Shown: positions 18,096 to 41,608, counted from the stretch's first letter. The stretch is DNA of 42,224 bases from a virus (IMGVR_UViG_3300031853_000004:101319-143542), one strand, 5' to 3'. The notes: generated by a model not told the origin, from the sequence alone. Numbers and translations are program-made.

Positions 18096-18104
18096 CGGGT
18101 CGTC

Positions 18105-19196: not shown

Positions 19197-19216
19197 ATCT
19201 ATTTTCCTCCCTTCAA

Positions 19217-19708: not shown

Positions 19709-19729
19709 TTATCTAACTCCTTAATTTAA

Positions 19730-21040: not shown

Positions 21041-21053
21041 CTATACCTCCTTC

Positions 21054-22601: not shown

Positions 22602-22615
22602 TGAACTCGACCTCC

Positions 22616-22972
22616 TTAATACCCCGCTTGATGCATAATATAATCATAAGTGATTCTATTTTCATCATAATGAGGAATAGTAATTAATTGTATACCATGC
22701 TTTAAGCAATAGTTCTTTTTTTGAGTATCATTATATTGTTGCCTATTTTTTCCTTTTTCGCCACCAAATTTAGAAACTCCTTGATAATGCTGTCTACCTT
22801 GAGCTTCTATTAAAAAATCTAATTGTCCATCGTCATTAAATACAGCGAAGTCGAATCTCAATGGCCTTCCGCTTGAAGCGACTAAATCATCGAATGTATA
22901 CTCTTCTTCAAAAGGAACGTCATAGTCTGTTAAAATATTGTGTATCTTTACTTCCATTTTTGATGATAACAT
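22616..22972 (-). CDS. PD-(D/E)XK-like endonuclease (118 aa)
   Basis: RBS AAGGAG, ATG 22972; motif LRFDFAVF...LIEAQGRQHY...NDTQKKNYCLKHGIQLITIPHY. Confidence 0.7.
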   Translation of the reverse strand: MLSSKMEVKIHNILTDYDVPFEEEYTFDDLVASSGRPLRFDFAVFNDDGQLDFLIEAQGRQHYQGVSKFGGEKGKNRQQYNDTQKKNYCLKHGIQLITIPHYDENRITYDYIMHQAGY

Positions 22973-23006
22973 ACTATTGCACTCCTTTCTCACTATTACT
23001 CTAAAG

Positions 23007-23046
23007 TATATAAAATTTAGATAAAACAAATTATTCAATTTTGCCC
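23007..23046 (-). promoter_or_regulatory. Candidate phage-specific or activator-dependent promoter motif
   Basis: GGGCAAAATTGAATAAT-N17-TATATA, with an identical 17-mer and identical spacing at 42014-42053. Confidence 0.5.
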
Positions 23047-23067
23047 TAATTTTTTAAAAATTTTTTA

Positions 23068-24813: not shown

Positions 24814-26066
24814 TATATCTCACCTGCCTCAACCATCCGAAGCAATTCTTCTGCTTCTGCTTCAATTTCATTTTCATATTCAACAGGACTTTTTTCTCTA
24901 TCTTTTTCATATTTTTCTTCTCTAAGTCGTTGTTGTTCAGCTTCTTCCGCAGATGTGACAAGACCAAGATTTACGTCAAGAGATTCATCTTCTTGCTTTT
25001 CAAGCTTTGCAATATAAGACTCAATTAAGTCTCCAAGTCGTAGCTCATCTGCCGCGAGATGATAGGTGTAAGCTTTTAAATCTTTTAATTCAAAATCAAT
25101 TACATCTTGAGGATACTGATTAGGATCAAATTGCGGCAACGCTTCAATAATACCTCCATTTTTTTCACAAAGCGCAGCTAATTCTCCAATAGTAGAAAGA
25201 AGTTCTCTTTTTTCTTCTTTCTTTTGTGCTTCTGTAAAACGACCTGATTTACGAAGTTGATCAAAGACGGTTGCGAGATTTTTATAAGCTGTTATATCTC
25301 CAGTATCTAGAGCTTCATCCATCTTTAAAGAAGTTTTGCACATTTTCTTTAAAACTTCTTCTCGGTCAGAGTTTAAATCATACTCTTCCGCATATTTTTG
25401 ATACATTGTTTCCATTGTAATTCATTGTTGAGGATTATACATTACTCCTCATTTTAAAAGTAAATAATCAATATCTTCTTGAGTTAATTGATTTGATCAA
25501 TATGTATCATCTTTTGCATAAGGAGGTTTTTCTTCTTTTTCTTCTTCCTCTTGAATATCCATATCAACAAAATCTATATTTTCTCCAAGAGAAGAAGGTT
25601 CAGTAAGTGTGCGGTATTCTGCTTCTGAAATTTCACCTGCGTCTAATTTTCGTTTTAGTTCTTCTTTATTTAAGTTTTCTTTTTCTGCGAGTGCTTTAGG
25701 TTTATATTCTTTTCCTTGCGATTTTGCCCGAGCTTCGTCGTAAGTGTCAGCTGAATGTTCATAACGTATATCTTCATATTGTTTCATATTCATTGTTCGT
25801 ATATAATTACCTATAACAGACTTTGGGCCAAACTTACCGGGATTCCGCATATAGATTTTATTTGTAAGCTCTACTCATTTTTCTTTAATGTAAGGAACAT
25901 CAAATTCTTTTAGAATTCAGTCGAAAGTACTTCTATCTCGATTATCTATATATTGAGTTAAACAATCTTTACAAAGCTTATAACGTTCTCCTGATTTCAT
26001 TTTAAAGAATTCTGTTTCTCTTAATGACCTCCCGCACTTTTCACATTTTTTCTTTGCTACAGTCAT
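24813..26066 (-). CDS. Zn-ribbon protein (417 aa), putative terminase small subunit-like; 5 in-frame TGA
   Basis: RBS AAGGAGG, ATG 26066. CEKC...CKDC at the N-terminus; TGA at 25917, 25875, 25497, 25449 and 25422 (LK(W)GVMYNPQQ(W)); directly upstream of terL. The TerS role is inferred from position. Confidence 0.7.
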
Positions 26067-27149
26067 TTATTTTTCCTCCTTCCCATTGCGGCACTCTCTA
26101 CATTGACTATAAAAACCTTCTTTATTGGAATTTTTAGGGAAGAAGAAAGGATGTGCAGGCATGACCTTCCCGCACTTTGAACAAGTTTTCCAATTTAAAG
26201 AAGAATCTGTTTTATAATTGTTTAAGTAATGTTTTAAAATGTAGCGTTTTTGTACTTCTTTAGAGATTAATTTGGGAATGCGTCTTCTTCAAATAGAAGA
26301 ATAATACTGTTCTGTATGATTAACTCCATAATGTTTTAAAACTAATTCTTGAATTTGTTTGTTAGAGCGTCCATCTACTTTTCAAATTAAAATATCTCAA
26401 AGCATTGGGTATTTTTGTTCTAAAGCTGCGGATGCTACCTCTTCTAAATCTATTAAGTGTCAAAGCATATCACTTTCTAAAAGATATCAAGATTCTTCTT
26501 TTAGTGGTTGGTAGTATTGAAGAAGAAAAGATACGTGATCTGGATTTAAAAGAGTGAGTAGATCATCGCTATATGGGTATCCATCTTTTCAGTAAACTGT
26601 TTCTGGAATATCAATATTTGCTAAATATTGTGTTTTATTAGTGGATATGTTGAGTGCCATTTTATGAGAACTTTTTATTAGATAAAGTTGTTTTCAAGTT
26701 TCTATAATAGTTTTTTTTAAGTTTTTGCGGCGTTGACCTGTTGCGTGTTGATATTGTCATTCTAATTTTTTTATTACGTTAAGTCCTTCAGCTATGCCTG
26801 GAATATTTTTTATATCTTCTTTAGTTAGAGGATCTTTATTGTCAAGTTTCATTTCTTTGTTATCACACATGATAGAATAAAGTCCATCTTCTCCATTTTC
26901 TAATCTATCAATTAAACCTTCATAAGATATCTGTCTTTTGTCTATTGTATGTTCTCTATTGGGAGTTGTTATTGGATAATCTTCTTTACGTTCTTTTTTA
27001 GTTTGATTTTTATCTCGGGTAAAAAGTAGATAATCCCCCAACAGAGAAAGTTCATTAGAGTTTGGGGTATATTTTGATAAAAGTTTATCAACAAATTCTT
27101 TGCGGGATTCGATGGTTTGTAAGGAATAATCTAAAAACAAGGTTCGCAC
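26067..27149 (-). CDS. First gene of the late block: putative transcriptional regulator with HTH-like segment and C-terminal Zn finger (about 360 aa); 8 in-frame TGA
   Basis: TGA at 26757, 26694, 26589, 26487, 26460, 26397, 26382 and 26289; TAA 26067; C-terminal CSKC...CREC; HTH-like DILI(W)KVDGRSNKQIQELV. Start is GTG 27149 or TTG 27140. Confidence 0.72.
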
Positions 27150-27268: not shown

Positions 27269-27297
27269 TTGACGAGTTAAAAAATATATGGTATAAT
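27269..27297 (+). promoter_or_regulatory. Sigma70-type promoter (divergent)
   Basis: TTGACG-17 nt-TATAAT upstream of 27323. Confidence 0.75.
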
Positions 27298-27322
27298 TTA
27301 ATTAAAAGAAAGGAGAAAAAAT

Positions 27323-27541
27323 ATGAAAGAATATATGAGTAAATTTACTGATCTTGCAGACGATGCGAATGCGATCGAAAAATTGTTTGAGGAACTTTAT
27401 AAAGATTGTAAGGGAAATGCGAAAAAAGAGAAGGCTTTATATGATATCCTAGAAAATCAGATGTGGAAAAGTTGGAGAGATAAAACTATTGATGCAAGAA
27501 CAGCTTATTTGTATAAAAGATTAATGGATAGGATTTCATAA
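27323..27541 (+). CDS. Hypothetical protein (72 aa)
   Basis: RBS AAGGAG; TAA stop; Trp=TGG. Confidence 0.8.
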   Translation: MKEYMSKFTDLADDANAIEKLFEELYKDCKGNAKKEKALYDILENQMWKSWRDKTIDARTAYLYKRLMDRIS

Positions 27542-27819
27542 TCAAAAACTGAAAAATGATTTAGAAGATTTTTTGTGCGTGGCCCCGACTCACCCTTAAT
27601 ACTTTTATGTAATAGCCCGAATGTACCCGCCCTATTAGATAGCGCACGATGTATTGGCGCACGATGCTATAGCGTGCCGTTATCATGTGTAACTGTACAA
27701 AATACTCTAAGAAATAAATGTGTGCAGATTGTGAAGAATTGTGTTTCTCAGCTGTTCGTCTGTAGGCGCGTGTTATTATTAAGTCGTAAAGAAAAACTCC
27801 AGCAGAGAGGAACACAAAA

Positions 27820-27951
27820 ATGGCAACTATTTCAATCACAATGGCAATTATCACAATCGTTTCAGTTTTTTATGCAATGGCAAAATATCCGATTGAAAAT
27901 AGCCAAATTGATAAAATGTGGGATGAAACACTTCAAAGAGATTGGACATAA
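27820..27951 (+). CDS. Small membrane-anchored protein (43 aa)
   Basis: RBS GAGAGG; hydrophobic N-terminus MATISITMAIITIVSVFYAM; followed by a hairpin at 27952-27980. Confidence 0.65.
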   Translation: MATISITMAIITIVSVFYAMAKYPIENSQIDKMWDETLQRDWT

Positions 27952-27980
27952 AAAAAGGAACCTAAAAGGTTCCTTTTTTA
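27952..27980. terminator. Bidirectional terminator
   Basis: AAAAAAGGAACC-loop-GGTTCCTTTTTT. Confidence 0.75.
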
Positions 27981-28197
27981 TTATAGCTCAACATCAAAAT
28001 TTTAACTACCATTCTTATATAATATTTCAAAATACTAAGTCGATCCCCTATATCTTTTATGTATTAACATAGATAGCATCAAAACGTTATGACCGCTCAC
28101 CACAATTTCTCTACCGTTCGCGGTAACTATTGACTCTAGCTATCGTATGCTGTATATTATTAGTAAAGAGAAGATAACAAACAGAGAGGATAGGACA

Positions 28198-28389
28198 ATG
28201 AAGAACGTAGTAGCAATTAAGGATATGACCAACGGCCTTAATGAAAAACTCGCAAACGTTGGTGATAGGTTTGAGGTAGATAATATTAGGGAAAACAGGA
28301 AGTATGGAAAATTCTATGATTTAAATGGTATCAAACACAATCTCACAATACATGAAAGTGTCTTTAGTGAGTATTTTAAAGAGGTCTAA
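28198..28389 (+). CDS. Hypothetical protein (63 aa)
   Basis: RBS GAGAGGA; upstream promoter with TTGACT; TAA stop followed by a GAGGTC/GACCTC hairpin. Confidence 0.75.
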   Translation: MKNVVAIKDMTNGLNEKLANVGDRFEVDNIRENRKYGKFYDLNGIKHNLTIHESVFSEYFKEV

Positions 28390-28635
28390 CAAAGACCTCT
28401 TTTTTTATGTCTAAAAGAAGATATCACATAAAAGTTATCGTGGTTGGGCGAAATTGTACCACACGCACACAAAGACTGTCAAGCGAGAATTTTATTTTTT
28501 CCACTCACATTTATAATTCTACCGTTCACCATTCACCCACATTTTACTACCGTTCATCCGTGATGCTTGACGTACTAGCAACACAAGAGTATAGTATTAG
28601 ATAGTTAAAGGATACAACAAAGAGAGGACAGAACA

Positions 28636-28782
28636 ATGACCGTAGCAGAGTTAATAAAGCAGCTTCAGGAAATGCCCCAAGATAAGGAAATTAATATTCC
28701 TGTTGATGATTATGGCTATGGGCCAGTTAGAAGAGTAGAGATAGACGAAACGTTTGATGTGGTTCTTATAGATTGCGACTAA
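28636..28782 (+). CDS. Hypothetical protein (48 aa)
   Basis: RBS GAGAGGA; MTVAELIKQLQEMPQD...; terminator 28801-28829. Confidence 0.75.
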   Translation: MTVAELIKQLQEMPQDKEINIPVDDYGYGPVRRVEIDETFDVVLIDCD

Positions 28783-29058
28783 ACATTTATCATAAATAAT
28801 AAAAAAGGGCTCAAACGAGCCCTTTTTTATTGCATAAAATTGTTATTACAAAAATGGTATCGAGGTTGGGCGAAAAATTATAACACGCCGGCACAGAGTT
28901 TGTCAAGAGAAACATTCAAATTACCGCTCACGTCTACAATTCTACCATTCACCGTTCATCCATAATTTACTACCGCTCACGGTAAAGCATTGACACATTC
29001 AGCTAGTAAGCGTATAGTATTAGATAGTTAAAGGATACAACAAAGAAAGGATAGAACA

Positions 29059-29274
29059 ATGACTATCAAGTACACCAACAATGACCTCGTTTCTCGCGCG
29101 CTTGACATTATCGGTTACACCATTGATGATATTGTTAAAGTATTTGAAGGTGGCGCGGCCTTGTTTCTTGAATTGTGCGACGGTTCTACTCTGTGCAAAC
29201 AAGTTTACAACGGTTTAACAATATGGAAATACAATAGCAACAATTACACACCTGAAACTTTCATCCTTGATTAA
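29059..29274 (+). CDS. Hypothetical protein (71 aa)
   Basis: RBS GAAAGGA; promoter with TTGACA and TATAGT; terminator 29273-29302. Confidence 0.75.
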   Translation: MTIKYTNNDLVSRALDIIGYTIDDIVKVFEGGAALFLELCDGSTLCKQVYNGLTIWKYNSNNYTPETFILD

Positions 29275-29972
29275 AAGAAGCCTTTTAAGGCTTCTTTTTT
29301 TTATGTTGACGCACATAAAAGACTAAACCAATTCTAAGCGATTCTGACAATCGCACTTATTAAAATAAGCAAAAAAGCAAATAGGCCCTTAGAATGGCTT
29401 AGAATGGCTCAAACGCTAAAAAATTGTGGAGGCGACTAGAAAAAACCGACAGAAAAAAGTTTTCAACATCGGGGTTTAAAACGTCTCACAATCGCTCTAT
29501 TTTGTTAAAAACTCGTATCCTGAAATTGAATATAAAAGCTTTTCAACAAAGTTGTTAACATCAAACAATTAAATAATTACTTTTACTATTGGACATAAAA
29601 ATATTAATTAATAAGTTCATGATAAAAGACTAAACAATTGAATATCAAAACATTAACCAACAACATAAAAGCTATATCACATAAAAATTATCGAGGTTGG
29701 GCGAAATTTTACCACACCGCGCTAGTAAAAGTCAAATGAAGATTTTGCAAATGCGAGTTTATGCACATAATCTTCACAAAGTCCTAAAATATCAGATAGT
29801 TAACAAAAAACATTACAAATGTTATGTACCAAACATATATATATTTACTATCTGCTAAAAAACACCTATGTTTACCTGCTGTTTCACAAAACGTCCACAA
29901 CTAACGATTCTCGGTTGCAAACATTTTAAATAGGCGTATAGTATATATTAACAACGAAAGAAAGGAATTGAA

Positions 29973-30443
29973 ATGTCCAACTTGACCATGCACGCCCACC
30001 TTGCAAACACCTACCAGAACCATGCCTATACTCATAACTATATATTCACTTTTAGTTATAGGGGCGTTGTGTATGCTGTTACGATGTTTGATGTCGATAC
30101 GGCCGAGCTGATGAATATTACAAAAATTGATAAGGCATCGCGTGGCGCGGGCTACAGTCTGCGTTTTCGTCCCACCAATGCTATAAAGCAATATTTGGTA
30201 GCTATGGGCGCCGATACTCTGTGCAGCGTGGAATATTTCAACTCTTTAGTTAAAAGTCATAAGTACAACAAAGGCGAAACGGCAGAAATGCTCGTTACCG
30301 AACAGCTGTTCGGACAAAAGTGGGAAAAAGATAGCGTGCCTTTTACAATGGCGGGCGATATAGAGGATAATGGTATAGCTTTCCAACATAAGCATGAGGG
30401 CGCCACGTTCTGCAATGAAAAAACCCTACGCAATCTCTGCTAG
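29973..30443 (+). CDS. Conserved phage hypothetical protein (156 aa), possibly PD-(D/E)XK-like fold
   Basis: RBS GAAAGGA; motif YNKGETAEMLVTE...WEKDSVPF...GDI...FQHK; TAG stop. Confidence 0.75.
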   Translation: MSNLTMHAHLANTYQNHAYTHNYIFTFSYRGVVYAVTMFDVDTAELMNITKIDKASRGAGYSLRFRPTNAIKQYLVAMGADTLCSVEYFNSLVKSHKYNKGETAEMLVTEQLFGQKWEKDSVPFTMAGDIEDNGIAFQHKHEGATFCNEKTLRNLC

Positions 30444-30582
30444 GGTCTACCCTATAAGGGCGTTAGCTCTAATGCCGGCGCCCTTATATGGAGAATATGT
30501 GCAGATATGCAATTCTCCAATAGAATGGCTATATGATAGGTTATTATAGATATATAAGCAAATCCAAGAGAAAGGTAAAACC

Positions 30583-30816
30583 ATGGAAAGCACCTATATC
30601 GCAAAAATTTTTATAAATCTTGACAATGGAGATAAGATTCTTTATGATGAAATTTCTCTGTCAGAAGACTTTTCTAATGACCAATTTAATCAAATGCTTA
30701 ATGATTGTCTCTCGCAAATTAATCATAACACATATTTACAATTTTATAAAACAATTATTTTTACAAACCATGTCTCAAAAATCAACATAGAAACTTCAGT
30801 AGATTATCATTATTAA
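30583..30816 (+). CDS. Hypothetical protein (77 aa)
   Basis: RBS GAAAGG; TAA stop. Confidence 0.7.
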   Translation: MESTYIAKIFINLDNGDKILYDEISLSEDFSNDQFNQMLNDCLSQINHNTYLQFYKTIIFTNHVSKINIETSVDYHY

Positions 30817-30977
30817 ACAAACAGACCTAAGTAAGTCTTTAAACTGCTTAATTTTTTACACGGCAGATCCTTGCGGTGATCTTGCTGCATAAATATTTTA
30901 AAGTCCTGTGCCGGCAGATCCGTATCAAATATTTAACTATATCTCTAAACAAAAAGAGTGCTTGCGCACTCTTTCTA

Positions 30978-31220
30978 TTATAATCTAATTGTAGTAATAA
31001 CACCATCCTTAATCTTGATAGCTCGACGGTCGCCCTCTTCACGACCAAACACTTCAAATAGTGATTCATTTTTAAGAACCTCGACGCGGCCAACGTTTGA
31101 ATGTTTGATAAAGTAACGAGCTTCTTTCTCGGCATCCCGCAGAGTATTAAAGTTTGAATGAGTAATGATATCATTGGTGAAACGAGCAAAAGCAACTACG
31201 AAATAGATATTACATGCCAT
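30978..31220 (-). CDS. Hypothetical protein (80 aa)
   Basis: RBS GAAAGGA; promoter TTGACA-17-TATAGT; terminator about 30951-30975. Confidence 0.75.
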   Translation of the reverse strand: MACNIYFVVAFARFTNDIITHSNFNTLRDAEKEARYFIKHSNVGRVEVLKNESLFEVFGREEGDRRAIKIKDGVITTIRL

Positions 31221-31418
31221 GACAAAATCCTTTCTCTTTAACGCTACATATACTATAGTTCATCTATTGGAATATGTCAATAGCTTCATAAAATCTACAC
31301 AAACGCGTGCCGGCGCAGAATATGTAGATTTTGTGAATGAAAATTTTTCTTGCTTCCCGCTTTATAATCTGGTATAATTATATTAGAAATAAAAAAGACG
31401 AAAGATTGGAATTGAAAA

Positions 31419-31568
31419 ATGCTATTGTTCCTCGGATGGGTTGTATTTTCTATTATCATGATACTTATTAGTGTATTTCTTGACAAAAATTATTATCTTG
31501 GTTTCTGGTACTATTGTTTTATTGGTTTACTTTTTGGAGTTGTAACTGCTATTTTTTCAATCCTTTAA
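31419..31568 (+). CDS. Small two-helix membrane protein (49 aa)
   Basis: Two hydrophobic segments; upstream TATAAT; weak RBS. Confidence 0.55.
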   Translation: MLLFLGWVVFSIIMILISVFLDKNYYLGFWYYCFIGLLFGVVTAIFSIL

Positions 31569-31610
31569 AATGAAAATTAAACTTGTTTCCTCCAAGAGAA
31601 AGGTAAAAAG

Positions 31611-31880
31611 ATGAAAGATTTTAAAAGTTATCACGTGGTTATTGATATTGATTTTTTAAATAACCGCGGCCTGCTTGGTAATTATCATAATACTTATGAT
31701 TCAAAATTGGAAATGAAAGCTATTAATAAATACAAAGATGCTATTTGGGATATCCAAGGTTTAATCAATAATTCTATTTCTATTAATCAAGATTTTTATA
31801 TCAATGCTAATATTACACTTTATGGTATTACTTTTGAAAATGAATATATTATTATGCGTCACCTTGAGCTAACATTATAA
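31611..31880 (+). CDS. Hypothetical protein (89 aa)
   Basis: RBS GAAAGG; TAA stop. Confidence 0.72.
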   Translation: MKDFKSYHVVIDIDFLNNRGLLGNYHNTYDSKLEMKAINKYKDAIWDIQGLINNSISINQDFYINANITLYGITFENEYIIMRHLELTL

Positions 31881-32013
31881 ATGAAAATGAAAAAGGGATT
31901 GTTTTTTGATTCCTTTTTCATTATCATTTTGCCCGGCACTCAATTATGAAAATTTTGTGAAGAACCTAAAACTATGCTATACTTTAATCAAGTCAAAGAG
32001 AGAGGAAATATTA

Positions 32014-32274
32014 ATGAATACTATTTATGGATGTTACTTCACAGATAATGATAGTGAAGAAATGTTATTATTTGCTTGTGATACAGTTGAACAAGTAATA
32101 GTTGCTATATATAAAGATATAGATGAACATTTGTTTTTTCCGATAGAAGAAATTAGACTTGATTGGGATTGTGAAAATGACGAAAATCCAACATGGGGCT
32201 TAATAAATATCTTTGCTGATAATGCGTTGCAATGTCGTTTTGTTTTTGAAAGAATCCCTTACATAAAAAAATAA
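32014..32274 (+). CDS. Acidic hypothetical protein (86 aa)
   Basis: RBS GAGAGG; TAA stop; followed by the pseudoknot motif. Confidence 0.72.
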   Translation: MNTIYGCYFTDNDSEEMLLFACDTVEQVIVAIYKDIDEHLFFPIEEIRLDWDCENDENPTWGLINIFADNALQCRFVFERIPYIKK

Positions 32275-32386
32275 AATAAATAACCTGAGCATGTTATAAA
32301 ACTGCTTTTGTGTATTTTCTATGAATAGACCTATTCTGTAGTAAGATATAAGAGTAAAGAAAACCACGAAAGAAGAGGGTCTAAAA

Positions 32387-32605
32387 ATGCGTAAAGAAGA
32401 TAAAGAAAAGAATCTTTCATTAGCTATTACAATTTGGTACGCCATTATTCAAAAACGAGGATATTTTGATTATTGGTTGGATTATAAAGAATGTGAACAA
32501 TGGATTATGAAACAATATCCAAATATCAAAAAAACTATAATTCATAAAGCCTTTTGGCATTATGTAAAAAAAGATACAGAATTCCTAGAAGAATTTGAAT
32601 GTTAA
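32387..32605 (+). CDS. Hypothetical protein (72 aa)
   Basis: RBS GAGGG; 4 Trp, all TGG; TAA stop. Confidence 0.72.
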   Translation: MRKEDKEKNLSLAITIWYAIIQKRGYFDYWLDYKECEQWIMKQYPNIKKTIIHKAFWHYVKKDTEFLEEFEC

Positions 32606-32744
32606 AATAAAATATCCCGAGCAATGATATAAAAAGGCTCAATAATCTTTAAGTTATCAATCTGTCCGGCGCAACTTATGAAGATTTTATGAATTGCAAA
32701 AACATGTGGTAACATAGTATTATCCAAGAGAGAAAGGAAAATAA

Positions 32745-32813
32745 ATGGAATTCATTCTTAGTATTGTTTTATTTACTCTATTGGGCACTATGGCAATCGT
32801 ACAGATTGGATAA
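32745..32813 (+). CDS. Hydrophobic mini-protein (22 aa)
   Basis: Same CCAAGAGA..AAGG RBS cassette as its neighbours; MEFILSIVLFTLLGTMAIVQIG. Confidence 0.5.
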   Translation: MEFILSIVLFTLLGTMAIVQIG

Positions 32814-33048
32814 TTGATGACAAGGCGAGTATTTTTTAAAATTATTCCTACTATTTTGATTGGAGTTAAGGCCGCACTGTGCGGCCTCCCTTATCTTATA
32901 ACTTTTAAAGTATCATGATCACCGGCATGAAACATCAAATGATTAATAATTCACAATTCCTACAAATATAAAAATGACAATTAACTTGAGATTCAAACAG
33001 TCTATAATAATAATTGTCAGAAAGAAAGAACTAAAAGAAAGGATAAAA

Positions 33049-33291
33049 ATGTTTTATGCCTACCGTGCGAATGATGCTGAAAGTTTGATGATTAATCCTT
33101 CTACAGGCGACCATCTTTTTTTTGATATGGACACTCTTAAAAAGGCTGTAGAAGAAGATGCTAAAGAAGAAATGTATGAAGATGGAGATTCAATTCCTTA
33201 TATTCTTATTGACCTAAAAAATAAAACTTTCAAAACTCTTAAAGTTTACTATGTTATTACTTATACTACTAAAATTAAAATAGAGGATTAG
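33049..33291 (+). CDS. Hypothetical protein (80 aa)
   Basis: RBS GAAAGGA; TAG stop; followed by the pseudoknot motif. Confidence 0.72.
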   Translation: MFYAYRANDAESLMINPSTGDHLFFDMDTLKKAVEEDAKEEMYEDGDSIPYILIDLKNKTFKTLKVYYVITYTTKIKIED

Positions 33292-33562
33292 TTATTTGTC
33301 CTGAGCATGACTTAAAACTACTCATTTTTTATATCTTTTCTATAAAAAATTTTAATTTTTTGCATAAAAATGTGTACAAAGATCGTGCCGGCCGCACTTT
33401 TCAACATTATTTTCAACAAAAAAGAATTAAAAATCGATCAGTTTTCAACAAAAATAATATAATTTTCTCTAAAAACAATTAAAATGTGGAGATTCTATGG
33501 AGCTATTGACTTTAAAAAGCAAATGCCTATAATAATAATTGTGTCCAAGAGAAAGGAAAAAT

Positions 33563-34267
33563 ATGAAAAAGGTATTTGCAATTCTTGACATTGAGACTGT
33601 AACCGATGCTCGTTTGGCTTTTGATATTGCATGGATTGTATGTGACTCAAAGGGTAATGAGCTTGAGCGTTACAATGCACTTGTTAAAGATATTATTGAT
33701 AGTCCTTTTGGAATGGCATTTCTTAGGCGAGATAGTTTCATTAAGAACAAGGCTCAAATGTATATTGATGCTATTGTTTTTAATAGTATGGATATTAAAC
33801 CTTTTGAAGAAATTATGCAAGATTTTAATTCAATTTCAAAGCGTTACAATGCTAAAACTGTTATGTGCGCCTACAATGCAAAGTTTGATTTTAACGTTCT
33901 GAATGATAATGCAAGTTATATTTATGGATGCGGCGATGCATTTTTTGATGATGATATTGAAATTGTTGATATCATGACAATGGCATTGGCTACTATTTGT
34001 GATACTAATAAATATATTCTTTGGTGTATTCAGAATGGAATGGTAACAGAAAAAAATAACATTAGGACTAATGCACAAACTGTTTATGCTTACATGCTTA
34101 ATAATGCTGAATTTGTAGAAGCACATCACGCACTAGAAGATTGTGAAATTGAAAAAGATATATATTTTAAGGCTCGCAAGCGTAAGCAAAAGCATCACAA
34201 AGATTTTGCAATGCCAATGTTTAGGTGTCCTGAGTGGAAAAAAGTACAATCTAGGAATGTTCATTAA
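33563..34267 (+). CDS. DEDDh 3'-5' exonuclease (DnaQ-like, 234 aa)
   Basis: ExoI LDIET, ExoII AYNAKFD, ExoIII HHALED; RBS GAAAGG; promoter TTGACT-17-TATAAT. Confidence 0.88.
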   Translation: MKKVFAILDIETVTDARLAFDIAWIVCDSKGNELERYNALVKDIIDSPFGMAFLRRDSFIKNKAQMYIDAIVFNSMDIKPFEEIMQDFNSISKRYNAKTVMCAYNAKFDFNVLNDNASYIYGCGDAFFDDDIEIVDIMTMALATICDTNKYILWCIQNGMVTEKNNIRTNAQTVYAYMLNNAEFVEAHHALEDCEIEKDIYFKARKRKQKHHKDFAMPMFRCPEWKKVQSRNVH

Positions 34268-34437
34268 TTAAAAATGGGCGGGGAAAATTAAATTCCTCGC
34301 CTTATTTTTATATCTTCTGAACTGTGGAGATTTTATGGGGTTGCGCCGGCGCGATCAAAATATGAAGATTTTGTGAATCAGTCTAAAATATGGTATTCTA
34401 TAAGTGTAAAAAGAATTCTGGCTGAAAGGACTTAACC

Positions 34438-34641
34438 ATGATTTATTCTTTTATTCTTGAAGGCGAAAACATTGATGGCGATATCCTCACATTATGCGTT
34501 GAATTTGAAAACGTCGAATCCTTTAAGGATGCTTGTGAGTTAGCCGAACTTGAAGCTATCCACATGCTTGAATCTGAAGAAGGCGGACATATTGATATTT
34601 TTGATATTGATGGGAATTTCATCAATGATGTAGAAGTATAA
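34438..34641 (+). CDS. Acidic hypothetical protein (67 aa), paralog of 41414..41608
   Basis: Shares GE.(I/L)DGD and GGHID.F...D.F..DVEV with 41414..41608. Confidence 0.75.
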   Translation: MIYSFILEGENIDGDILTLCVEFENVESFKDACELAELEAIHMLESEEGGHIDIFDIDGNFINDVEV

Positions 34642-34789
34642 CCAACAAACATCCTAGGCACGATGTAAAACTACCTACATAATTTTTTAAACGATCGTGC
34701 CGGCACGAAATGTGAAAATTCTATGGAGAAAGCTAGACTGTGTTAATATATAAGTGTAAGAAAAAACCAATAAAAGAAAGGCAATAAAA

Positions 34790-34957
34790 ATGTTTATTTA
34801 CAAGATTTTTGAAAATATTTGTTTAAAGTTTGAAACATTTTTTTGTTTTTGTGCCAAATACATTAATTGGAATTTTTTTCAGCCAATTGTTATGTTTTTT
34901 AATGATTGTGCATGGTATTGGGATGATAAAATTAATGATATTAGAATAGCAGACTAA
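34790..34957 (+). CDS. Aromatic-rich small protein (55 aa)
   Basis: RBS GAAAGG; TAA stop; followed by the pseudoknot motif. Confidence 0.6.
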   Translation: MFIYKIFENICLKFETFFCFCAKYINWNFFQPIVMFFNDCAWYWDDKINDIRIAD

Positions 34958-35070
34958 ATTAATAATTTATCCTAGGCACGATGTAAAAAGGCCTTTATGA
35001 ATTTTCTATGAACCAGCCTATTTTATAGTAAGACATAAGAGTAAGAGAAACCACGAAAAAAGGAAACAAA

Positions 35071-35238
35071 ATGACTGCTAACGACCTACTCATTGAAATT
35101 TTGAGTAATGCTTGTACACTTGACGCTGATATTCAAATTGCTACATATAATTATGATTTAGACGATTATGAATTTTGGCCGCTTGAAAAAGCATTTATTA
35201 ATTATGATGAAAAAAATATTACACTAATCGCTAATTAA
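35071..35238 (+). CDS. Small acidic protein (55 aa)
   Basis: RBS AAGGA; TAA stop; followed by the pseudoknot motif. Confidence 0.65.
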   Translation: MTANDLLIEILSNACTLDADIQIATYNYDLDDYEFWPLEKAFINYDEKNITLIAN

Positions 35239-35375
35239 TTAATAACATCCTGAGCATGATGTAAAAAGGCTTATATAATTTTCTTAAATTTTGCACCGGC
35301 GCGAATGTGTAGATTCTATGGAGACACTAAAGATGTGCTATACTTTAATCAAGTCGAAGAGAGAGAGGATTAAAC

Positions 35376-35609
35376 ATGCAACACATCAAACTTTGGGTAA
35401 TCACTGTTAACCCAAAACAGGGCTATGGAGCGCCTTACTATTTTATATATCAAAATGGTGATAACGCAATGAATAAATTTCAAGAATTAATTAATAAATA
35501 TAATCTTAGTATTGTCGGATTGTTGAGGAATGAAGCAATTGCGGGAGATGATGGCGACCATAAACATATTAATAGAATAATAATTGAACCTGATTATACT
35601 TGTGATTAA
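35376..35609 (+). CDS. Hypothetical protein (77 aa)
   Basis: RBS GAGAGGA; TAA stop. Confidence 0.72.
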   Translation: MQHIKLWVITVNPKQGYGAPYYFIYQNGDNAMNKFQELINKYNLSIVGLLRNEAIAGDDGDHKHINRIIIEPDYTCD

Positions 35610-35624
35610 AGAAAGGAAAATAAA

Positions 35625-35753
35625 ATGCTTATTTGGATTTGTGATTTTAATGCTCATGTAAAGTATCCTTGCACCGACTTAATTACGGCGAGTAAATGGT
35701 ATCATTATCTTGTTGATATTAAAAATCATACTGATTGTGCAATAACAGATTAA
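35625..35753 (+). CDS. Small protein (42 aa)
   Basis: RBS GAAAGGA; TAA stop; followed by the pseudoknot motif. Confidence 0.62.
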   Translation: MLIWICDFNAHVKYPCTDLITASKWYHYLVDIKNHTDCAITD

Positions 35754-35840
35754 CATAATTATCCTGAACAAGATATAAAACTGTTCATTTTTTTATTTTA
35801 ATAGTTAAAAATTTTATTGTGCGCCGGATCTACCTTTAAT

Positions 35841-35854
35841 CGAACATGCGTTCT
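35841..35854. promoter_or_regulatory. LexA (SOS/Cheo)-like box
   Basis: CGAAC-ATGC-GTTCT; related boxes at 36220, 36778 and 39051. Confidence 0.55.
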
Positions 35855-35961
35855 GTAGTACCGGCGTGAAATGTGGAGATAATATGAAGCTATTGACATA
35901 GAAAAATGTTCCCCTATAATAATAATTGTCAAAAAGAAAAACCAAAAGAGAGGATAAAAAA

Positions 35962-36144
35962 ATGGCTAAATCTAAATATATAACAGTTTCTTTAGATATT
36001 AATTTTTATGACATTGATGGAATTGAGGGACTTCTTGAAATGCTTAAATATAATCATACAACGATTCTTGATATTATTATAGAAGGATACTCTTCAGACT
36101 ATGGAACATCAATTAAAAAAATAGAGGAACATAAATTTAACTAA
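35962..36144 (+). CDS. Hypothetical protein (60 aa)
   Basis: RBS GAGAGGA; promoter TTGACA-17-TATAAT; followed by the pseudoknot motif. Confidence 0.7.
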   Translation: MAKSKYITVSLDINFYDIDGIEGLLEMLKYNHTTILDIIIEGYSSDYGTSIKKIEEHKFN

Positions 36145-36426
36145 AAATGTTATCCTGAGCAGGATAAAAAACTACTCTTTTTTTAATTTAATATACCATG
36201 CGCCAAGTTCACTTCTGATCGAACATCTGTTTTGTAGCACTGGCGCATGTAGTTTCACTTTTTATGAGTGCCGATCCTCTTAAATCAATATCTTAACCAT
36301 TCACAATTCCTACAGATATAAAAATGACAATTGACTCAATCTAAGAAGTGTCTATAATAATAATTGTCAGAAAGAAAAGGTTCCCCAATAAGACTTGAGC
36401 CTAATAGCTCGGGAAGGTTGGTCACT

Positions 36427-36660
36427 ATGGCTAACACGGTTACATATGCAAACGCACTCGCCGCTGTGGTTAATCAACAGGACGAAATCGAACGGCTTAA
36501 GGTCGAAAACGCGAAGTTAAGAGAACTAATACAAAGAAGAGTTAAAGACTATATGTATGAGAATTGCAGCGATTGCTGGGGCGGTCTCTGCGAAGAGTGT
36601 CAATGTTGGATATCCGAATGCGCGAACGAGCTTTGTGAGCTCAGAGTTGAAGTGAAGTAA
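36427..36660 (+). CDS. Chimeric hypothetical protein (77 aa): coiled coil plus Cys-rich segment
   Basis: A 29-nt leader/N-terminus segment is identical to that of 38281, then unrelated sequence (EIERLKVENAKLREL...CSDC...CEECQC). Confidence 0.72.
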   Translation: MANTVTYANALAAVVNQQDEIERLKVENAKLRELIQRRVKDYMYENCSDCWGGLCEECQCWISECANELCELRVEVK

Positions 36661-36777
36661 CTATCACTCCTGAGCATGAGTCTAAACCGCTCATTTTTTA
36701 TGTCCAAATAGTTAAATTTTGATTTGATGCAATTCAATTTTTGATGTAGGGTCTGCCCGGCACGATCTTTTTTAGTC

Positions 36778-36791
36778 CGAACTGACGTTCG
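36778..36791. promoter_or_regulatory. LexA (SOS/Cheo)-like box
   Basis: CGAAC-TGAC-GTTCG, with perfectly palindromic arms. Confidence 0.6.
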
Positions 36792-37158
36792 ATAATTATG
36801 CCGGCGCGAATCTATAACTTTAAAGTTATGAACAATCAAAAAATTTTATATAAATAGTCATCATAAACGGCCGCAACATTATAACATGCCCGCCGCAATC
36901 TTGTCAAGAGAAACCGATCAATTCACAAATTCCCCACAAATAAGAAAAGAAATCATTTTAGTACAAGTCCTGATATTCGATTTTAGAATTTAATTAATCT
37001 ATTTATTAAAAACACCTCGATCTACCTGCGGTTTCACAAAATCTGCAAATATAAAAATGACAATTGTATTGTACGTTAAAAGTAGTATAGTAATAATTGT
37101 CAGGGGGACAAAGAGTCCCAATCCAATCGACCCTGCGGGGTCAAGAAAGGGGTGCCCT

Positions 37159-37533
37159 ATGGCTACCACCACTTATTTCACCGCTCTGTCCACCGCGATT
37201 GATTTCCTTAAGGCTAACGATTTTGATAATCAAGACGTTATCGACAAGCTCACTACTCTGCGTGACCAAAAGGCCACTAAGGCAAAGAATGGGCAAAAGT
37301 CCACGGCTCGCAAGGGCAATGAGGTGTTGGCTCAAAACGTAGTCGATGCTATTCGCAATAGCGGCGAGACTGAGGTTAAGGCCGCATGGATTCGCGATAA
37401 CGTGGATGGTATTAACACCACTCCAAAGGCCGTGGCCGTTATCAACGTAGGCATTGACATGGGCATTCTCAAGAGTCGCCGCATTGAAAAGAGTGCTACT
37501 CGTAACGAGCTTGTCTATTCGGTAGCCGAGTAG
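37159..37533 (+). CDS. Putative winged-helix DNA-binding protein (124 aa), paralog A
   Basis: Closely similar to 38281..38655 (same length; shared DVIDKL.TLR.QKATK and KSATRNELVY); wHTH-like C-terminus. Confidence 0.75.
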   Translation: MATTTYFTALSTAIDFLKANDFDNQDVIDKLTTLRDQKATKAKNGQKSTARKGNEVLAQNVVDAIRNSGETEVKAAWIRDNVDGINTTPKAVAVINVGIDMGILKSRRIEKSATRNELVYSVAE

Positions 37534-38280
37534 TTAAAAGGGTTATGGGGTTCCCAATAAAAACCCCAACCATTTAACCTCTTCTATTGAAAAGATTCTT
37601 ATGCATCCACCTTAATGTTTTTATTAAATCCTATCCACCCCATAACAAAGGAGTTATGATGCATCCACCATAATGTTACAAAAGGGGAATATAGCATTTT
37701 GAGCGTTTGGCTATTAGTACCCTTAAATATTAAAACGCTCTACCTTGCAAGTATTCTAGACCATGCTTGCAAGGTATAATTTTAAGTAAATAATTAAGAT
37801 TTTTATGCAAGTATCGATCAGGATTATAATTAAAATTTTTATCTAGGATCCGCCGGCACGATCTCACTAAAACCAAACAAATATTTGATCATTATGCCGG
37901 CGCAGATCTATAACTTTAAGATCATACTTGATCGAAAAATTTTAACTAATATTCTGATATAAGAATTTTACATAAAAGATCATCGTAGATGGCCGCAAAA
38001 TTATAGCATGCCCGCAACCAATATGTCAATGTCATTCACCGATTCACAAACTTCTCACAAATCAAAAATACAATCATTTTTGGTGCCAGTTTTGATGTGC
38101 CATTTTAGCTTCCCATTAACTTTTTGATAAAAACCAAGCGATCTACCTGCGGCTTTACAAAATCTACAAATATAAAATTGTGAATTGTACTGCACAAAAT
38201 TATGTGCATAATAATAATTGTCAGGGGGAAAGAGGTTCCCCCAATGGATTCGCCCCATCGGGCGGGAGAGGTTGGTCACT

Positions 38281-38655
38281 ATGGCTAACACGGTTACTTA
38301 TTTTATCGCCCTTGATACCGCTATCAAGTTCTTGGAAGATAACGGGTTCGATAACAAGGATGTTATCGACAAATTGGTCACTCTGCGTAAGCAGAAGGCC
38401 ACCAAGAATACCGCTGGGAAGAAGTCCGCGGCGCGTGAGAAGAACGAGGATTTCGCGAATGCGCTGGTTAAGGCCATGCGCGACGCTGGCGAAACCGAAA
38501 TTCGCGCGGCATTCGTTCGCGATAACGTGGACGGTGTCAACACGATTGCCAAGGCTGTGGCTGTACTCAATGTTGCAGCGGATATGGGCTTGATTGTCAC
38601 TGAGAAGCGCGCAAAAAGCGCTACCCGCAACGAGCTGGTTTACAAACTCGCATAA
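38281..38655 (+). CDS. Putative winged-helix DNA-binding protein (124 aa), paralog B
   Basis: Paralog of 37159; homologous downstream hairpin GGGTTATGGGGTTCCC...AAACCCC. Confidence 0.75.
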   Translation: MANTVTYFIALDTAIKFLEDNGFDNKDVIDKLVTLRKQKATKNTAGKKSAAREKNEDFANALVKAMRDAGETEIRAAFVRDNVDGVNTIAKAVAVLNVAADMGLIVTEKRAKSATRNELVYKLA

Positions 38656-39334
38656 TCACAGGGTTATGGGGTTCCCCTAAAAAACCCCTCGCATAAAAAA
38701 TAGTATCGTTGAGGTAGTGTGAAGCCGTGAGCCGCTACCTCAACGTTTATTTTTTTATATCCAATAGTTTCATCTTTTATGTCCAAGAGGATCGGTAAAG
38801 TAATTAAAATTTTTATGCGGCGCCGGCAGGATCCAGCACATCAAATATTTAATCAGGATCGCCGGCGATCGTGCATCAAACATTTAACTAATTTTTTTAA
38901 CTAAATTTTTATATAAAAATTCATAGTAGCCGGCCGTGACATTATACCACATCCGCGACATCTTGTCAAGCAAAATCCACAAATCCTACAAAATGTATTT
39001 TCTATGAAGTCCCTAAAATCGTGATACAATGTTATGGGGTTATATCCAATCGAACACATGTTTGATAACATTAAAAAATAGAACATCAGTTCTATAATGT
39101 ATAAGCATATAAATCTTGAAACCATATTCGATCGAACCTCCCTCGCGCGTCCTATACGGCGACTTTTCATAGAAATGGGGTTCTATACGCCAACAAGCCA
39201 TAGATCCTGAAATTCAACCATCCAATAGAAAGAAACAAAATAAAGGACGTGCGGCATCTCGCTATACGTCTTTCAAGAAGAATAATATATAAAAATTTTA
39301 ACTAGCATATTGATATAAAAAATTAAAAATGAAA

Positions 39335-39369
39335 TAAAAAAAGACCCTGCGGTATGAAACGCAGGGCCT
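39335..39369 (-). terminator. Intrinsic terminator
   Basis: GCCCTGCG-loop-CGCAGGGT followed by T7 on the minus strand. Confidence 0.75.
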
Positions 39370-39407
39370 TAATCAAGAAATAATTAGTCTAATCAAATGC
39401 AGCAAAA

Positions 39408-39770
39408 TTAGACCTTTGGCTTCCTCTTCTTCACTAGGGTAATTTCAAAGAGGTCGCCATTTATGTCAACCTGAACTTGACGTTCAGGGTTAACAACGTT
39501 AATTGATCCAGTGTCTTCCAGAGCCGCAGCCACCATCTCAATAATCATACGCTTCTGATCATCAGGCTTTCTAGTGACCTTGCGCTTTGGCTTATCAGGC
39601 ATAGTAGGAGCATCTACATCAAAACCATGATCCGCCGCATAAGCCATCATTGTTTGTCTATTGGAAAGTCCTTGGCGTTTTCCCTTACGAAGCACCTCCG
39701 CGGGAATATCAATCTCTTGAGCAACGCCATTCTTATCAGTGAACTTATAACGCATATCTCCTACAGCCAT
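39408..39770 (-). CDS. Conserved phage hypothetical protein (about 120 aa)
   Basis: RBS GGAG; TAA stop; basic C-terminus ITLVKKRKPKV. Confidence 0.75.
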   Translation of the reverse strand: MAVGDMRYKFTDKNGVAQEIDIPAEVLRKGKRQGLSNRQTMMAYAADHGFDVDAPTMPDKPKRKVTRKPDDQKRMIIEMVAAALEDTGSINVVNPERQVQVDINGDLFEITLVKKRKPKV

Positions 39771-39861
39771 TTAAACTCCTTAAAGACTCAATCTGATAAT
39801 TGGGGCTATATTTTAGTTGCCGCCCCATGCAACATATCGAAAGGAAAGAAGTGGGTAAGAC

Positions 39862-40209
39862 TTACTCTGCAATCACGCGATAAGTCTTGGCCTTAGACTT
39901 CTGCTCAGGCTCTACAACCTCAACCTTGCCCGCAGCAACAAGGCCACGGAGTGCACCAGAAACCTGGGGCGAAGAGAAACCTAGAGCATCCGCGATATCC
40001 TTAACCGCGACAGGCTCATCCATACCAGCAAGGTAATCAGCAATAGCGTCGCGACGCTCCTGAACCTCGGGGTTAGTCTTACGAGGAGCCTTCTTACGAT
40101 TCTCTAGCTGCTCAATCTTAGTGTTGCAAAACTCTACGATCTGTGCATCATCAGCGCACTTTTCAGCGATCATAGCGAACATCTGCTTCTGTGTAATCTT
40201 CTCTGCCAT
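39862..40209 (-). CDS. Winged-helix DNA-binding protein (115 aa)
   Basis: RBS AAGGAG; promoter TTGACA-17-TATAAT; HTH motif VAVKDIADALGFSSPQVSGALRGLVAAGKV. Confidence 0.8.
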   Translation of the reverse strand: MAEKITQKQMFAMIAEKCADDAQIVEFCNTKIEQLENRKKAPRKTNPEVQERRDAIADYLAGMDEPVAVKDIADALGFSSPQVSGALRGLVAAGKVEVVEPEQKSKAKTYRVIAE

Positions 40210-40354
40210 AATAAAATCTCCTTTTCTATCTGGTCTTTAATGACCTTCTTTTAATTTACTAATATTATACTATTTCTTTTTAAGTTTGTCAAGAGTTTTT
40301 TTATCTCCTTTGGCGGAAAATTTTTAGCAACGCCGCACCATCCTTAAAGCAACG

Positions 40355-40375
40355 TTACCACTATCTTCAGTCCAT
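40355..40375 (-). other. Promoter- and RBS-equipped minigene ATG GAC TGA AGA TAG TGG TAA
   Basis: TTGACT-17-TATAAT at 40412-40440 and RBS AAGGAG 5 nt before the ATG at 40375. Confidence 0.55.
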
Positions 40376-40859
40376 AGGAATCTCCTTTTCTCTCTCAACT
40401 TCTTTACTTATATTATACTATATCTTTTAGAAGAAGTCAAGAACTTTTTTTTGAAAATGAAAAATTTTTTTCTTAAAGATTAGAAATGAAATTGATCTAG
40501 GGAAGTTGAAAATGAAAATCCTTTTACCATTCCAAGAGAAGTTGGAAATGAAAATGCATAAAGGGATCCTACGAAGTCTCTTCCGCAATTCCTTCTTCCG
40601 CGCTTTCTCCCATGCGGAAGCCTTCTCGAAGTTCGCTTGAATCTTCTTTCGCTTTATTTCATTGCTTTTCCTTTGTTTTTTTCTCCATATGTTCTTTTGC
40701 TTAAATATTTTATTTATCTTCTTTGCTTTCGCTTTTCAAGCTCTCTTCTCGAAGATCGCCTTCTATTATAGCATATTTTTTTCTAAAAGTCAATATTTTA
40801 AGCTAAAAGTTTACAAAATTGTAACATTTCTCTCAAAGCATGACTTGTGAAATATTAGG

Positions 40860-40932
40860 TGGGCCTGGTTCGAATCGAACGAACGATCCATCGATTATGA
40901 GTCGATTGCATTAACCACTATGCTACAGGCCC
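40860..40932 (-). tRNA. tRNA with CAT anticodon, probably tRNA-Ile2 (lysidine type, reads AUA)
   Basis: Cloverleaf GGGCCTG...ATCGA-CTCATAA-TCGAT...CAGGCCC-A. C4-G69 and C5-G68 are the known E. coli TilS determinants. No complete encoded CCA. Confidence 0.85.
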
Positions 40933-40942
40933 AAGAAAAATC

Positions 40943-41019
40943 TGGTGGGAACAGTCCGATTTGAACGAACGATCTTCCGATTATCGGTCGGATGCTCTAG
41001 CCAACTGAGCTATGTTCCC
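40943..41019 (-). tRNA. tRNA-Ile(GAT)
   Basis: Cloverleaf, anticodon arm TCCGA-CCGATAA-TCGGA, encoded CCA. Confidence 0.92.
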
Positions 41020-41025
41020 ATATGA

Positions 41026-41098
41026 TGAAACCTCTGGGACTCGAACCCAGAACCTGTGAATTAAAAGTTCACACTTTAACCAATTAAGCTAAGGTTTC
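41026..41098 (-). tRNA. tRNA-Lys(TTT)
   Basis: Cloverleaf, anticodon arm GTGAA-CTTTTAA-TTCAC; followed by TCA instead of CCA. Confidence 0.88.
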
Positions 41099-41104
41099 AT
41101 ATTT

Positions 41105-41160
41105 TAGTACTTGTTAGTCTAAATCAGCAACACCACGTGAAGGTCAGTACTATAGTTGCC
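41105..41160 (-). ncRNA. HDV-like theta ribozyme abutting the tRNA-Leu 3' end
   Basis: GGCAAC TA TAGTACT G ACC TTCACGT GGT GTTGCT GATTTAGA CTAACA AGTACTA: P1 GGCAAC/GTTGCT with G1.U, P2 TAGTACT/AGTACTA, P3 ACC/GGT with a 7-nt L3, J4/2 CTAA. G1 immediately follows the tRNA discriminator. Confidence 0.85.
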
Positions 41161-41242
41161 TGCGGGATGTGAGATTCGAACTCACACGCTATCAAGCACT
41201 GCATTTTGAGTGCAGGGCGTCTGCCAATTCCGCCAATCCCGC
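41161..41242 (-). tRNA. tRNA-Leu(CAA)
   Basis: Type II cloverleaf, anticodon arm CTGCA-CTCAAAA-TGCAG, long variable arm; no encoded CCA. Confidence 0.92.
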
Positions 41243-41252
41243 CTATAAAACG

Positions 41253-41411
41253 TTATACTTCCTGTACGATCAACATGTCAAGGGAAGGCCGCACTTCTAC
41301 AATCTCGTATATACGTCCAAGAGAAGAGAAAATTTGTCCAACCTGCGGCACTCCGTAAAAGAGAACACTCTGAACGCTAGATCCATCACGATAAACAAAA
41401 TGACGAGCCAT
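41253..41411 (-). CDS. Small hypothetical protein (52 aa)
   Basis: RBS GGAGG overlapping the upstream gene end; MARHFVYRDGSSVQSVLFYGVPQVG...; TAA stop. Confidence 0.65.
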   Translation of the reverse strand: MARHFVYRDGSSVQSVLFYGVPQVGQIFSSLGRIYEIVEVRPSLDMLIVQEV

Positions 41412-41413
41412 AG

Positions 41414-41608
41414 TTAAACCTCCACATCAAACGCAAAATCATCAGTCTCAGCATAAAATGCATCTATATGACCACCATAAGGTCTAATAGCATCATAGGC
41501 TTTCCATTTAGCGAATTCCTCTGTAATGGGTTCCATTGATTCAAAACTAATTAAATCTCCATCAAGAGTTTCGCCAGTGAAATAATAGTAATCGCGAGGT
41601 GGTTTCAT
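41414..41608 (-). CDS. Hypothetical protein (64 aa), paralog of 34438..34641
   Basis: RBS AAGGAG, ATG 41608; ends GGHIDAFYAETDDFAFDVEV. Confidence 0.75.
   Translation of the reverse strand: MKPPRDYYYFTGETLDGDLISFESMEPITEEFAKWKAYDAIRPYGGHIDAFYAETDDFAFDVEV

Follow-up and report, generated by a model that had tools for sequence, protein, structure and literature searches.

Stage-biased TGA-to-tryptophan recoding and a probable early-to-late code switch in a phage from a bovine gut metagenome

How could a phage that reads UGA as tryptophan (Trp) express its first genes in a host that reads the same codon as a stop? The question is raised by a 42,224-nucleotide (nt) stretch of the virus record IMGVR_UViG_3300031853_000004 (positions 101319-143542, hereafter the window), in which a block of small genes free of in-frame TGA (the early block) lies next to virion genes that are rich in it. 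The original prediction, made from the window alone, took the small genes to be translated by an unmodified host and held that the late genes become translatable only after the phage has supplied a UGA-reading tRNA. Our analysis of the complete genome and its relatives makes it probable that this is a case of stage-biased stop-codon recoding (TGA to Trp) in a phage of a standard-code host, with a switch in code from early to late expression. The temporal code switch itself is not a new idea and was already modelled by Borges et al. (10.1101/2021.08.26.457843).

Open reading frames (ORFs) were called with TAA and TAG as the only stops and with TGA allowed as a sense codon, and their starts were picked by ribosome-binding site (RBS); a TGA-free result is not circular, because the calling permitted TGA as sense. 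The 29 small ORFs of the early block comprise 2,362 codons, with 30 TGG (29 of them on the plus strand) and no in-frame TGA, and they end in TAA (24) or TAG (five) but never in TGA, which bears out the earlier count of about 27 genes, about 29 TGG codons and only TAA/TAG stops. The two other frames of the same ORFs contain 201 TGA, so that approximately 100 would be expected in frame at that rate. No Pfam match was found for the 25 plus-strand proteins of the early block and PHROGs returned only phrog_20187 (33563-34267), leaving nearly all of them without known families. A shared leader, (A)AAGAGAGGA/AAAGAAAGGA followed after 6-8 nt by ATG, precedes most early genes (window 27300-36430), and their RBS context looks conserved.

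Elsewhere in the genome TGA is a sense codon. All eight TGA codons of TerL align with W/F/Y columns of standard-code homologs, and the TGA columns of the first late gene are TGG-encoded Trp in the standard-code relatives L024, L025 and L026. These alignments show that TGA reads as Trp in this phage; code 25 (TGA as glycine) was rejected from the alignments of TGA positions. In-frame TGA occurs in about 52 of 180 ORFs (~29%), which are strongly clustered, and the recoded codon is over-represented in the structural and lysis genes and under-represented in those of the early and replication blocks (Table 1). A Fisher test of TGA:TGG in the early versus the late block, as originally proposed, gave p=3.5e-13. 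Use of TGA at late-gene frequency in the rest of the non-late genome had been named as evidence that would speak against the prediction, and this is not what we found, the replication block having at most 10 TGA to 133 TGG vs. 131 to 67 in the late block.

The absence of TGA as a stop, on the other hand, is not specific to the early block. No unambiguous TGA stop was found in the whole genome, with at most ~7 ambiguous candidates, and the probability of finding none among 29 genes is 0.23-0.45 at the lineage rate of 2.7-5% and 0.028 at the 11.6% TGA stops of G006, a 138.5-kb relative with the standard code. Even in a standard-code relative of the Agate phages, 2.7% TGA stops were reported (Borges et al., 10.1101/2021.08.26.457843). 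In the non-late genes a position within the last 12 codons is about twice as frequent for TGA as it is for TGG, every case being ambiguous. The missing TGA stops are thus a genome- and lineage-wide trait. A RuvC-like gene (genome 13783-14280, minus strand) has TGA at a conserved Trp and ends in ...GCT TGA TAA exactly at the end of its homologs, which may be a former TGA stop backed by TAA.

The codon partition is conserved in relatives. In three recoded relatives, reached via the first late gene, the divergent upstream blocks contain 3 TGA and 48 TGG, and the late sides 54 and 43. Eleven of the 29 early proteins have orthologs in the relatives compared (29-80% identity), and the orthologs of these 11 genes in TGA-recoded relatives (34-80% identity) use TGG 43 times and TGA never. 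At similar divergence, TGG and TGA interchange freely in the first late gene. Because the early orthologs keep TGG while the late gene swaps the two codons, the comparison speaks for lineage-wide selection that keeps TGA out of early genes.

Putative promoters are partitioned as well. Allowing no more than one mismatch, 58 sigma-70 matches were found across the genome vs. 14 expected. They run in the same direction as the early, accessory and replication genes, and the 57-kb late block has only three in its own orientation. Many of them have the TRTG extended -10 element that is characteristic of sigma-A promoters in Gram-positive bacteria. Predicted promoters and terminators would split the early block into short transcription units, and this promoter partition supports the label "early" for the block. 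No YonO-like RNA polymerase was recognized among the large proteins of the phage. A different motif, TTTTAGGGCAAAA followed 4-6 nt on by TATAAT or TAATAAT, was observed on the minus strand (window 27254-27264; genome 128581, 101221, 76101 and 29101); it lies upstream of the first late gene, a 1,835-amino-acid (aa) gene, a third late gene and the noncoding RNA island, and is a candidate phage-specific promoter. With three matches in the window vs. two expected at one mismatch, its copies are too few for statistics.

The original prediction stated that no UGA-reading tRNA lies in the window, and indeed only tRNA-Met, -Ile, -Lys and -Leu are encoded there. It further expected a tRNA with anticodon UCA elsewhere in the genome, perhaps together with release factor 1 (RF1), tryptophanyl-tRNA synthetase (TrpRS) or an inhibitor of release factor 2 (RF2); the tRNA is present, whereas the accompanying genes were not recognized. 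Searches of the full genome with ARAGORN (default, with introns, and relaxed at ps80-95) and with Rfam RF00005 returned 11 tRNAs, none with a UCA anticodon. The 96-nt tRNA(UCA), which lies outside the window, has a cloverleaf as its minimum-energy fold (-38.7 kcal/mol, z=-3.2), with a 7-bp acceptor stem including A1-U72, a 6-bp D stem, the anticodon loop CUUCAAA, a T arm, G73 and an encoded CCA end, and it has an extra arm of 6 bp whose loop, GUCCAAA, displays CCA. Against the Rfam tRNA-Sec model it scores 25 bits, which is under the family threshold. A pattern scan of IMG/VR yielded 31 contigs, 22 of them with the full cloverleaf, and compensatory changes are seen in 21 of 25 pairs among 18 aligned members of the family; since the search pattern included the extra-arm loop, the conservation of that loop is by construction, but the stem covariation is not. 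A BLAST search with the tRNA in five relatives gave no match, and no credible UCA tRNA was found by pattern and ARAGORN searches in the recoded relative G005 (90% complete).

The tRNA(UCA) sits between a perfect sigma-70 promoter and a terminator, in an operon shared with a ROOL RNA, a tRNA-Pro, a YrlA-like RNA, a tRNA-Met and a tRNA-Thr, and directly upstream of the TGA-bearing lysis cassette, which encodes a 520-aa protein, a GH25 lysin and a CHAP protein. Genes for RF1, RF2 and TrpRS were not found in the complete genome with PF00472, PF03462 and PF00579 (domains RF-1, PCRF and tRNA-synt_1b), with positive controls.

We infer a standard code for the host, charging of the tRNA and a temporal order of expression, which would fit together as follows. 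The early host-takeover genes and most replication genes would read identically with UGA as stop or as Trp, and could for this reason be translated in an unmodified host with the standard code, most likely one of the low-GC Bacillota; transcription would start from host sigma-A-type promoters. A host-type promoter would drive the noncoding RNA/tRNA operon with the atypical tRNA(UCA), to which the host TrpRS presumably attaches Trp. When enough tRNA(UCA) had accumulated, the lysis cassette and the virion genes, in which TGA makes up 42-66% of the Trp codons, would become translatable.

Several observations qualify this scheme or weigh against it. Code-neutrality is not confined to the early block: the TGA-poor state also spans the replication genes (which include gyrase, RecJ, DnaE and NrdD), and some middle or accessory genes outside the late block use TGA as a sense codon at aligned positions (genome 31924-32733, 48849-49766 and 13783-14280). 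The partition is for these reasons graded rather than strict, with the early block as its clean extreme. The host-type promoter on the tRNA operon would allow the tRNA to be made from the first minute, which makes the delay an assumption. No recognizable RF2 antagonist, RF1 or TrpRS gene was found, and the scheme does not account for how the tRNA would prevail over RF2 in genes with as many as 21 UGA. Finally, the clues to the host are mixed: the closest matches to the GH25 lysin's catalytic domain (59% identity) are lysins on contigs of Atopobiaceae metagenome-assembled genomes (MAGs) with 61% GC, a mismatch with a phage of 32% GC, and the only low-GC host candidate, MAG G001, is linked to the phage by binning alone.

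Some of these points would equally suit a partition that is real but does not act as a timer, keeping virion and lysis genes silent outside their proper context or beyond the reach of competing elements that might capture them, or marking genes that tolerate recoding as they are needed only once the phage tRNA is abundant. The perfect host-type promoter, with the immediate expression that it makes possible, the graded rather than binary TGA density across blocks and the TGA in some accessory genes outside the late block (RuvC-like, HNH) all favor such an explanation, which we nevertheless consider unlikely, because the virion genes and the lysis cassette bear the heaviest TGA loads, in agreement with the published timing model, and the promoter classes divide at the same boundary.

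A host that itself uses code 4 (the Bacilli/Mollicutes-type code in which UGA is Trp), with the TGA-free early block due to ancestry or chance, is very unlikely. It would agree with the lack of an unambiguous TGA stop anywhere in the genome, with the AT-rich composition (32% GC) and with the MAG binned with a related phage contig, whose own relatives are small-genome Bacilli of 0.9-2.4 Mb. At 32% GC, however, TGG should drift to TGA in such a host as it did in the late genes (66%), rather than stay at 0 of 30 in the early block and at most 7% in the replication block, and the early orthologs in recoded relatives would not be expected to retain TGG throughout (TGA 0 vs. TGG 43). In phages whose code matches that of the host, ~90% of genes are recoded, compared with 26-71% in phages of standard-code hosts (Borges et al., 10.1101/2021.08.26.457843); the ~29% found here lies inside the latter range and far from ~90%, and the stage bias also differs from the pattern expected of a code-matched phage. 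A code-4 host had been named at the outset as a finding that would speak against the prediction, and neither this fraction, nor the TGA stops of the standard-code relative G006, nor the fact that the phage brings its own tRNA(UCA) points to one.

The same holds for the MAG G001, a 1.5-Mb genome of low-GC Bacilli that holds a related recoded phage contig and has prfB and an rpoB without TGA. Together with the Firmicutes-type promoters of the phage and the relative G006, this MAG gives a standard-code host indirect support only. Spacer-like searches of this MAG and 60 of its relatives returned only short, weak, AT-rich matches. A scan of GTDB genomes with the GH25 endolysin, which has six in-frame TGA, found its nearest cellular homologs (48-59%) on MAG contigs of Atopobiaceae/Olsenella with 60-61% GC, and also matched one binned phage contig.

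That the early block is a recent or fast-turnover accessory import from standard-code phages, TGA-free without any codon selection, is extremely unlikely: most early ORFs lack known relatives, only 11 of 29 have homologs in the relatives compared, and window 36-40 kb has 38-42% GC vs. 32% for the genome, but the orthologs in recoded relatives (34-80% identity) use TGG and never TGA, late genes of similar divergence interchange the two codons, and long-resident replication genes avoid TGA likewise.

Stage-biased recoding in a standard-code host thus remains our preferred explanation, and the early region also contains two short ORFs whose products would differ between the two decoding states. 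The first is a minigene, in which AAAAGGAGA, a strong Shine-Dalgarno (SD) sequence, is followed after 5 nt by ATG GAC TGA AGA TAG; its product would be Met-Asp-stop in the standard code and Met-Asp-Trp-Arg-stop when UGA is read. It was not conserved in the relatives compared. The original prediction regarded it as the only exception among the early genes; the minigene is real, but there is a second exception, a short ORF with a strong promoter that starts at 40688 with MEKKTKEKQ-TGA, TGA being codon 10, and that would give 9 codons, or 39 with readthrough. Because the phage must read as many as 21 UGA in a single gene against host RF2, and carries neither RF1 nor TrpRS, the early block might encode an RF2 antagonist, either as one of the ~25 orphan early proteins or in the form of the 40375 minigene, which would serve to sequester RF2 or to sense how UGA is decoded. 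For the latter, the minigene is taken to be strongly expressed and UGA-terminated, as its near-consensus promoter and SD would predict. We put this forward as a doubtful idea.

The virus record has 143,542 bp, 32% GC and a CheckV completeness of 100%. Its last 176 nt (143367-143542) repeat the first 176 (1-176) at 98.9% identity, and the genome is complete on account of this terminal direct repeat, which is at odds with the record's classification as "linear, no end repeats". A bovine gut metagenome is the sole public run containing the whole stretch, and no RNA datasets are listed among the public runs containing it. TerL is 41-48% identical to the terminases of phAss-1, Enterococcus phages VRE9_4, H1 and EF1, and Geobacillus phage E3, its tblastn matches being annotated YonF, and Pfam YonG_N, YonD_N and YonB match syntenic genes in close relatives (L078-L081). 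Because of the YonF-type TerL and these syntenic Yon genes, we assign the phage by homology to the SPbeta-like siphoviruses; the window is the right-hand third of its genome.

Table 1. Main features of the window and related elements, with codon tallies by block (positions are those of the window unless marked as genome)
Feature	Position	Strand	Remarks
Late (virion) block in window	1..27149	-	frequent in-frame TGA
Giant protein, at least 2,776 aa	extends past window start	-	late block
Portal	21054-22601	-	late block
TerL	23068-24813	-	late block
First late gene, 360 aa	26067..27149	-	8 TGA : 1 TGG; divergent from early block
Six co-oriented near-consensus sigma-70 promoters (predicted)	27269, 28990, 30620, 33506, 35893, 36331 (27269..36358)	+	with several intrinsic terminators
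Early block, 25 small RBS-led ORFs (25-234 aa)	27323..38655	+	TGA 0, TGG 29; stops TAA 20, TAG 5
TGA-free ORFs (4)	39408-39770, 39862-40209 (winged-helix MarR-like), 41253-41411, 41414-41644	-	consensus promoters at 41682 and 40292
Minigene	40375-40361	-	11/12 sigma-70 promoter at 40440-40412
Short ORF with TGA at codon 10	40569-40688	-	
tRNA cluster Met(CAT), Ile(GAT), Lys(TTT), Leu(CAA)	40858..41242	-	none reads UGA
tRNA(UCA)	genome 26449-26544	-	
Sigma-70 promoter of tRNA(UCA) operon	genome 28531	-	perfect match
Terminator of tRNA(UCA) operon	genome 25681	-	
GH25 endolysin	genome 22982-24019	-	lysis cassette
TGA:TGG, late block			131:67 (66% TGA)
TGA:TGG, lysis cassette and tRNA island			18:25
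TGA:TGG, replication block			at most 10:133 (at most 7% TGA)
TGA:TGG, early block			0:30

The noncoding RNAs of the genome deserve mention in their own right. A full-length ROOL RNA (genome 27575-28233, minus strand; Rfam RF03087, 284 bits) lies in the same promoter-terminator unit as the tRNA(UCA), and the YrlA-like Y RNA (genome 26065-26179, minus strand) scores 37 bits, below threshold; a gene for a TROVE/vWA (Ro60-like) protein is located at genome 34923-36374 (minus strand). Immediately 3' of the tRNA-Pro there is a weak match to a hepatitis delta virus (HDV)-like ribozyme (genome 27417-27479, minus strand; RF02682, 23.9 bits, E=0.29), the same position at which "theta" ribozymes adjoin phage tRNAs (PMC10879173). 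The standard-code relative G006 has an 82-nt tRNA-Trp(CCA) with a small extra arm (16216-16297, minus strand). In the window, three paralogous units of ~200-250 nt occur on the minus strand of 36700-39000, each starting from a perfect TTGACA-N17/18-TATAAT promoter (36907, 38029 and 38969); GC-rich CGGCCGG/GCCGGCG motifs occur in these ORF-free units, which are candidate small RNAs and are interleaved with two paralogous 124-aa plus-strand genes (37159-37533 and 38281-38655) in an island of 38-42% GC.

Among the protein-coding genes, the first late gene carries a sigma-factor label from PHROG 5767 only, which was not corroborated, and the notion of a code-gated late sigma factor was dropped. 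Pfam gave no match for it, and Foldseek searches of PDB and VIA-align wide produced nothing beyond generic helical matches; the AlphaFold models are confident, with a pLDDT of 82 for the whole protein and 92 for the C-terminal half. PHROG matches at genome 7976-9121 and 14785-16972 (both minus strand) to the PurZ-like "2-aminooxy adenylosuccinate synthetase" family (phrog_1211) and to an RNA ligase and polynucleotide kinase suggest possible functions in base modification and tRNA repair.

Several known systems resemble the present phage. In the model of Borges et al. (10.1101/2021.08.26.457843), genes compatible with the standard code are expressed first, suppressor tRNAs follow, and recoded structural and lysis genes come last. 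Among the gut and rumen phages of Firmicutes with stage-biased TGA-to-Trp recoding, the "Agate" phages of that study, ~127 kb and from cattle and pig, are the closest in kind: TGA at Trp is concentrated in structural and lysis genes, absent from DNA-replication genes and depleted as a stop, and both have a phage-encoded suppressor tRNA, a ruminant gut origin, genomes of 130-150 kb and close relatives with the standard code. This likeness is one of features, and the decoder here differs in being an atypical two-hairpin tRNA that escapes standard tools. Jade phages (Borges et al.) carry RF1 or TrpRS, whereas the present phage has neither. The proposed Phassvirus phAss-1 (Babkin et al., 2023, PMC10607447) shares a TerL of 43% identity, a size of ~136 kb, an SPbeta-like layout, recoded late genes and suppressor tRNAs, but it recodes TAG (code 15) with three tRNA-Sup(CTA), where the present phage reads TGA as Trp. 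The code-25 phages of Absconditabacteria (Borges et al.) likewise read in-frame TGA as an amino acid, but in ~90% of genes, without stage bias and as glycine, compared with ~29%, a sharp bias and Trp here. The SPbeta-type siphoviruses of Bacillus, Enterococcus and Geobacillus (VRE9_4, H1, EF1 and E3) have a TerL (YonF) of 41% identity, a similar size and YonB, YonD and YonG_N homologs in the same order as in relatives of the present phage; they differ in using the standard code throughout and in the YonO-type RNA polymerase, which was not recognized here.

Overall, the phage is a further example of the published code-switch model rather than evidence of a new principle. More original is its atypical tRNA: a suppressor was detected in only 35% of code-4 phages (Borges et al., 10.1101/2021.08.26.457843), for which tRNAs missed by standard tools may account, and a tRNA invisible to both ARAGORN and the Rfam tRNA model means that surveys under-count suppressor tRNAs. 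As a complete and well-partitioned case of a probable code switch, in which a strictly TGA-free early module is conserved in relatives and the promoters split at the same boundary, this genome is a good template for experiments on the timing of phage lysis by recoding.

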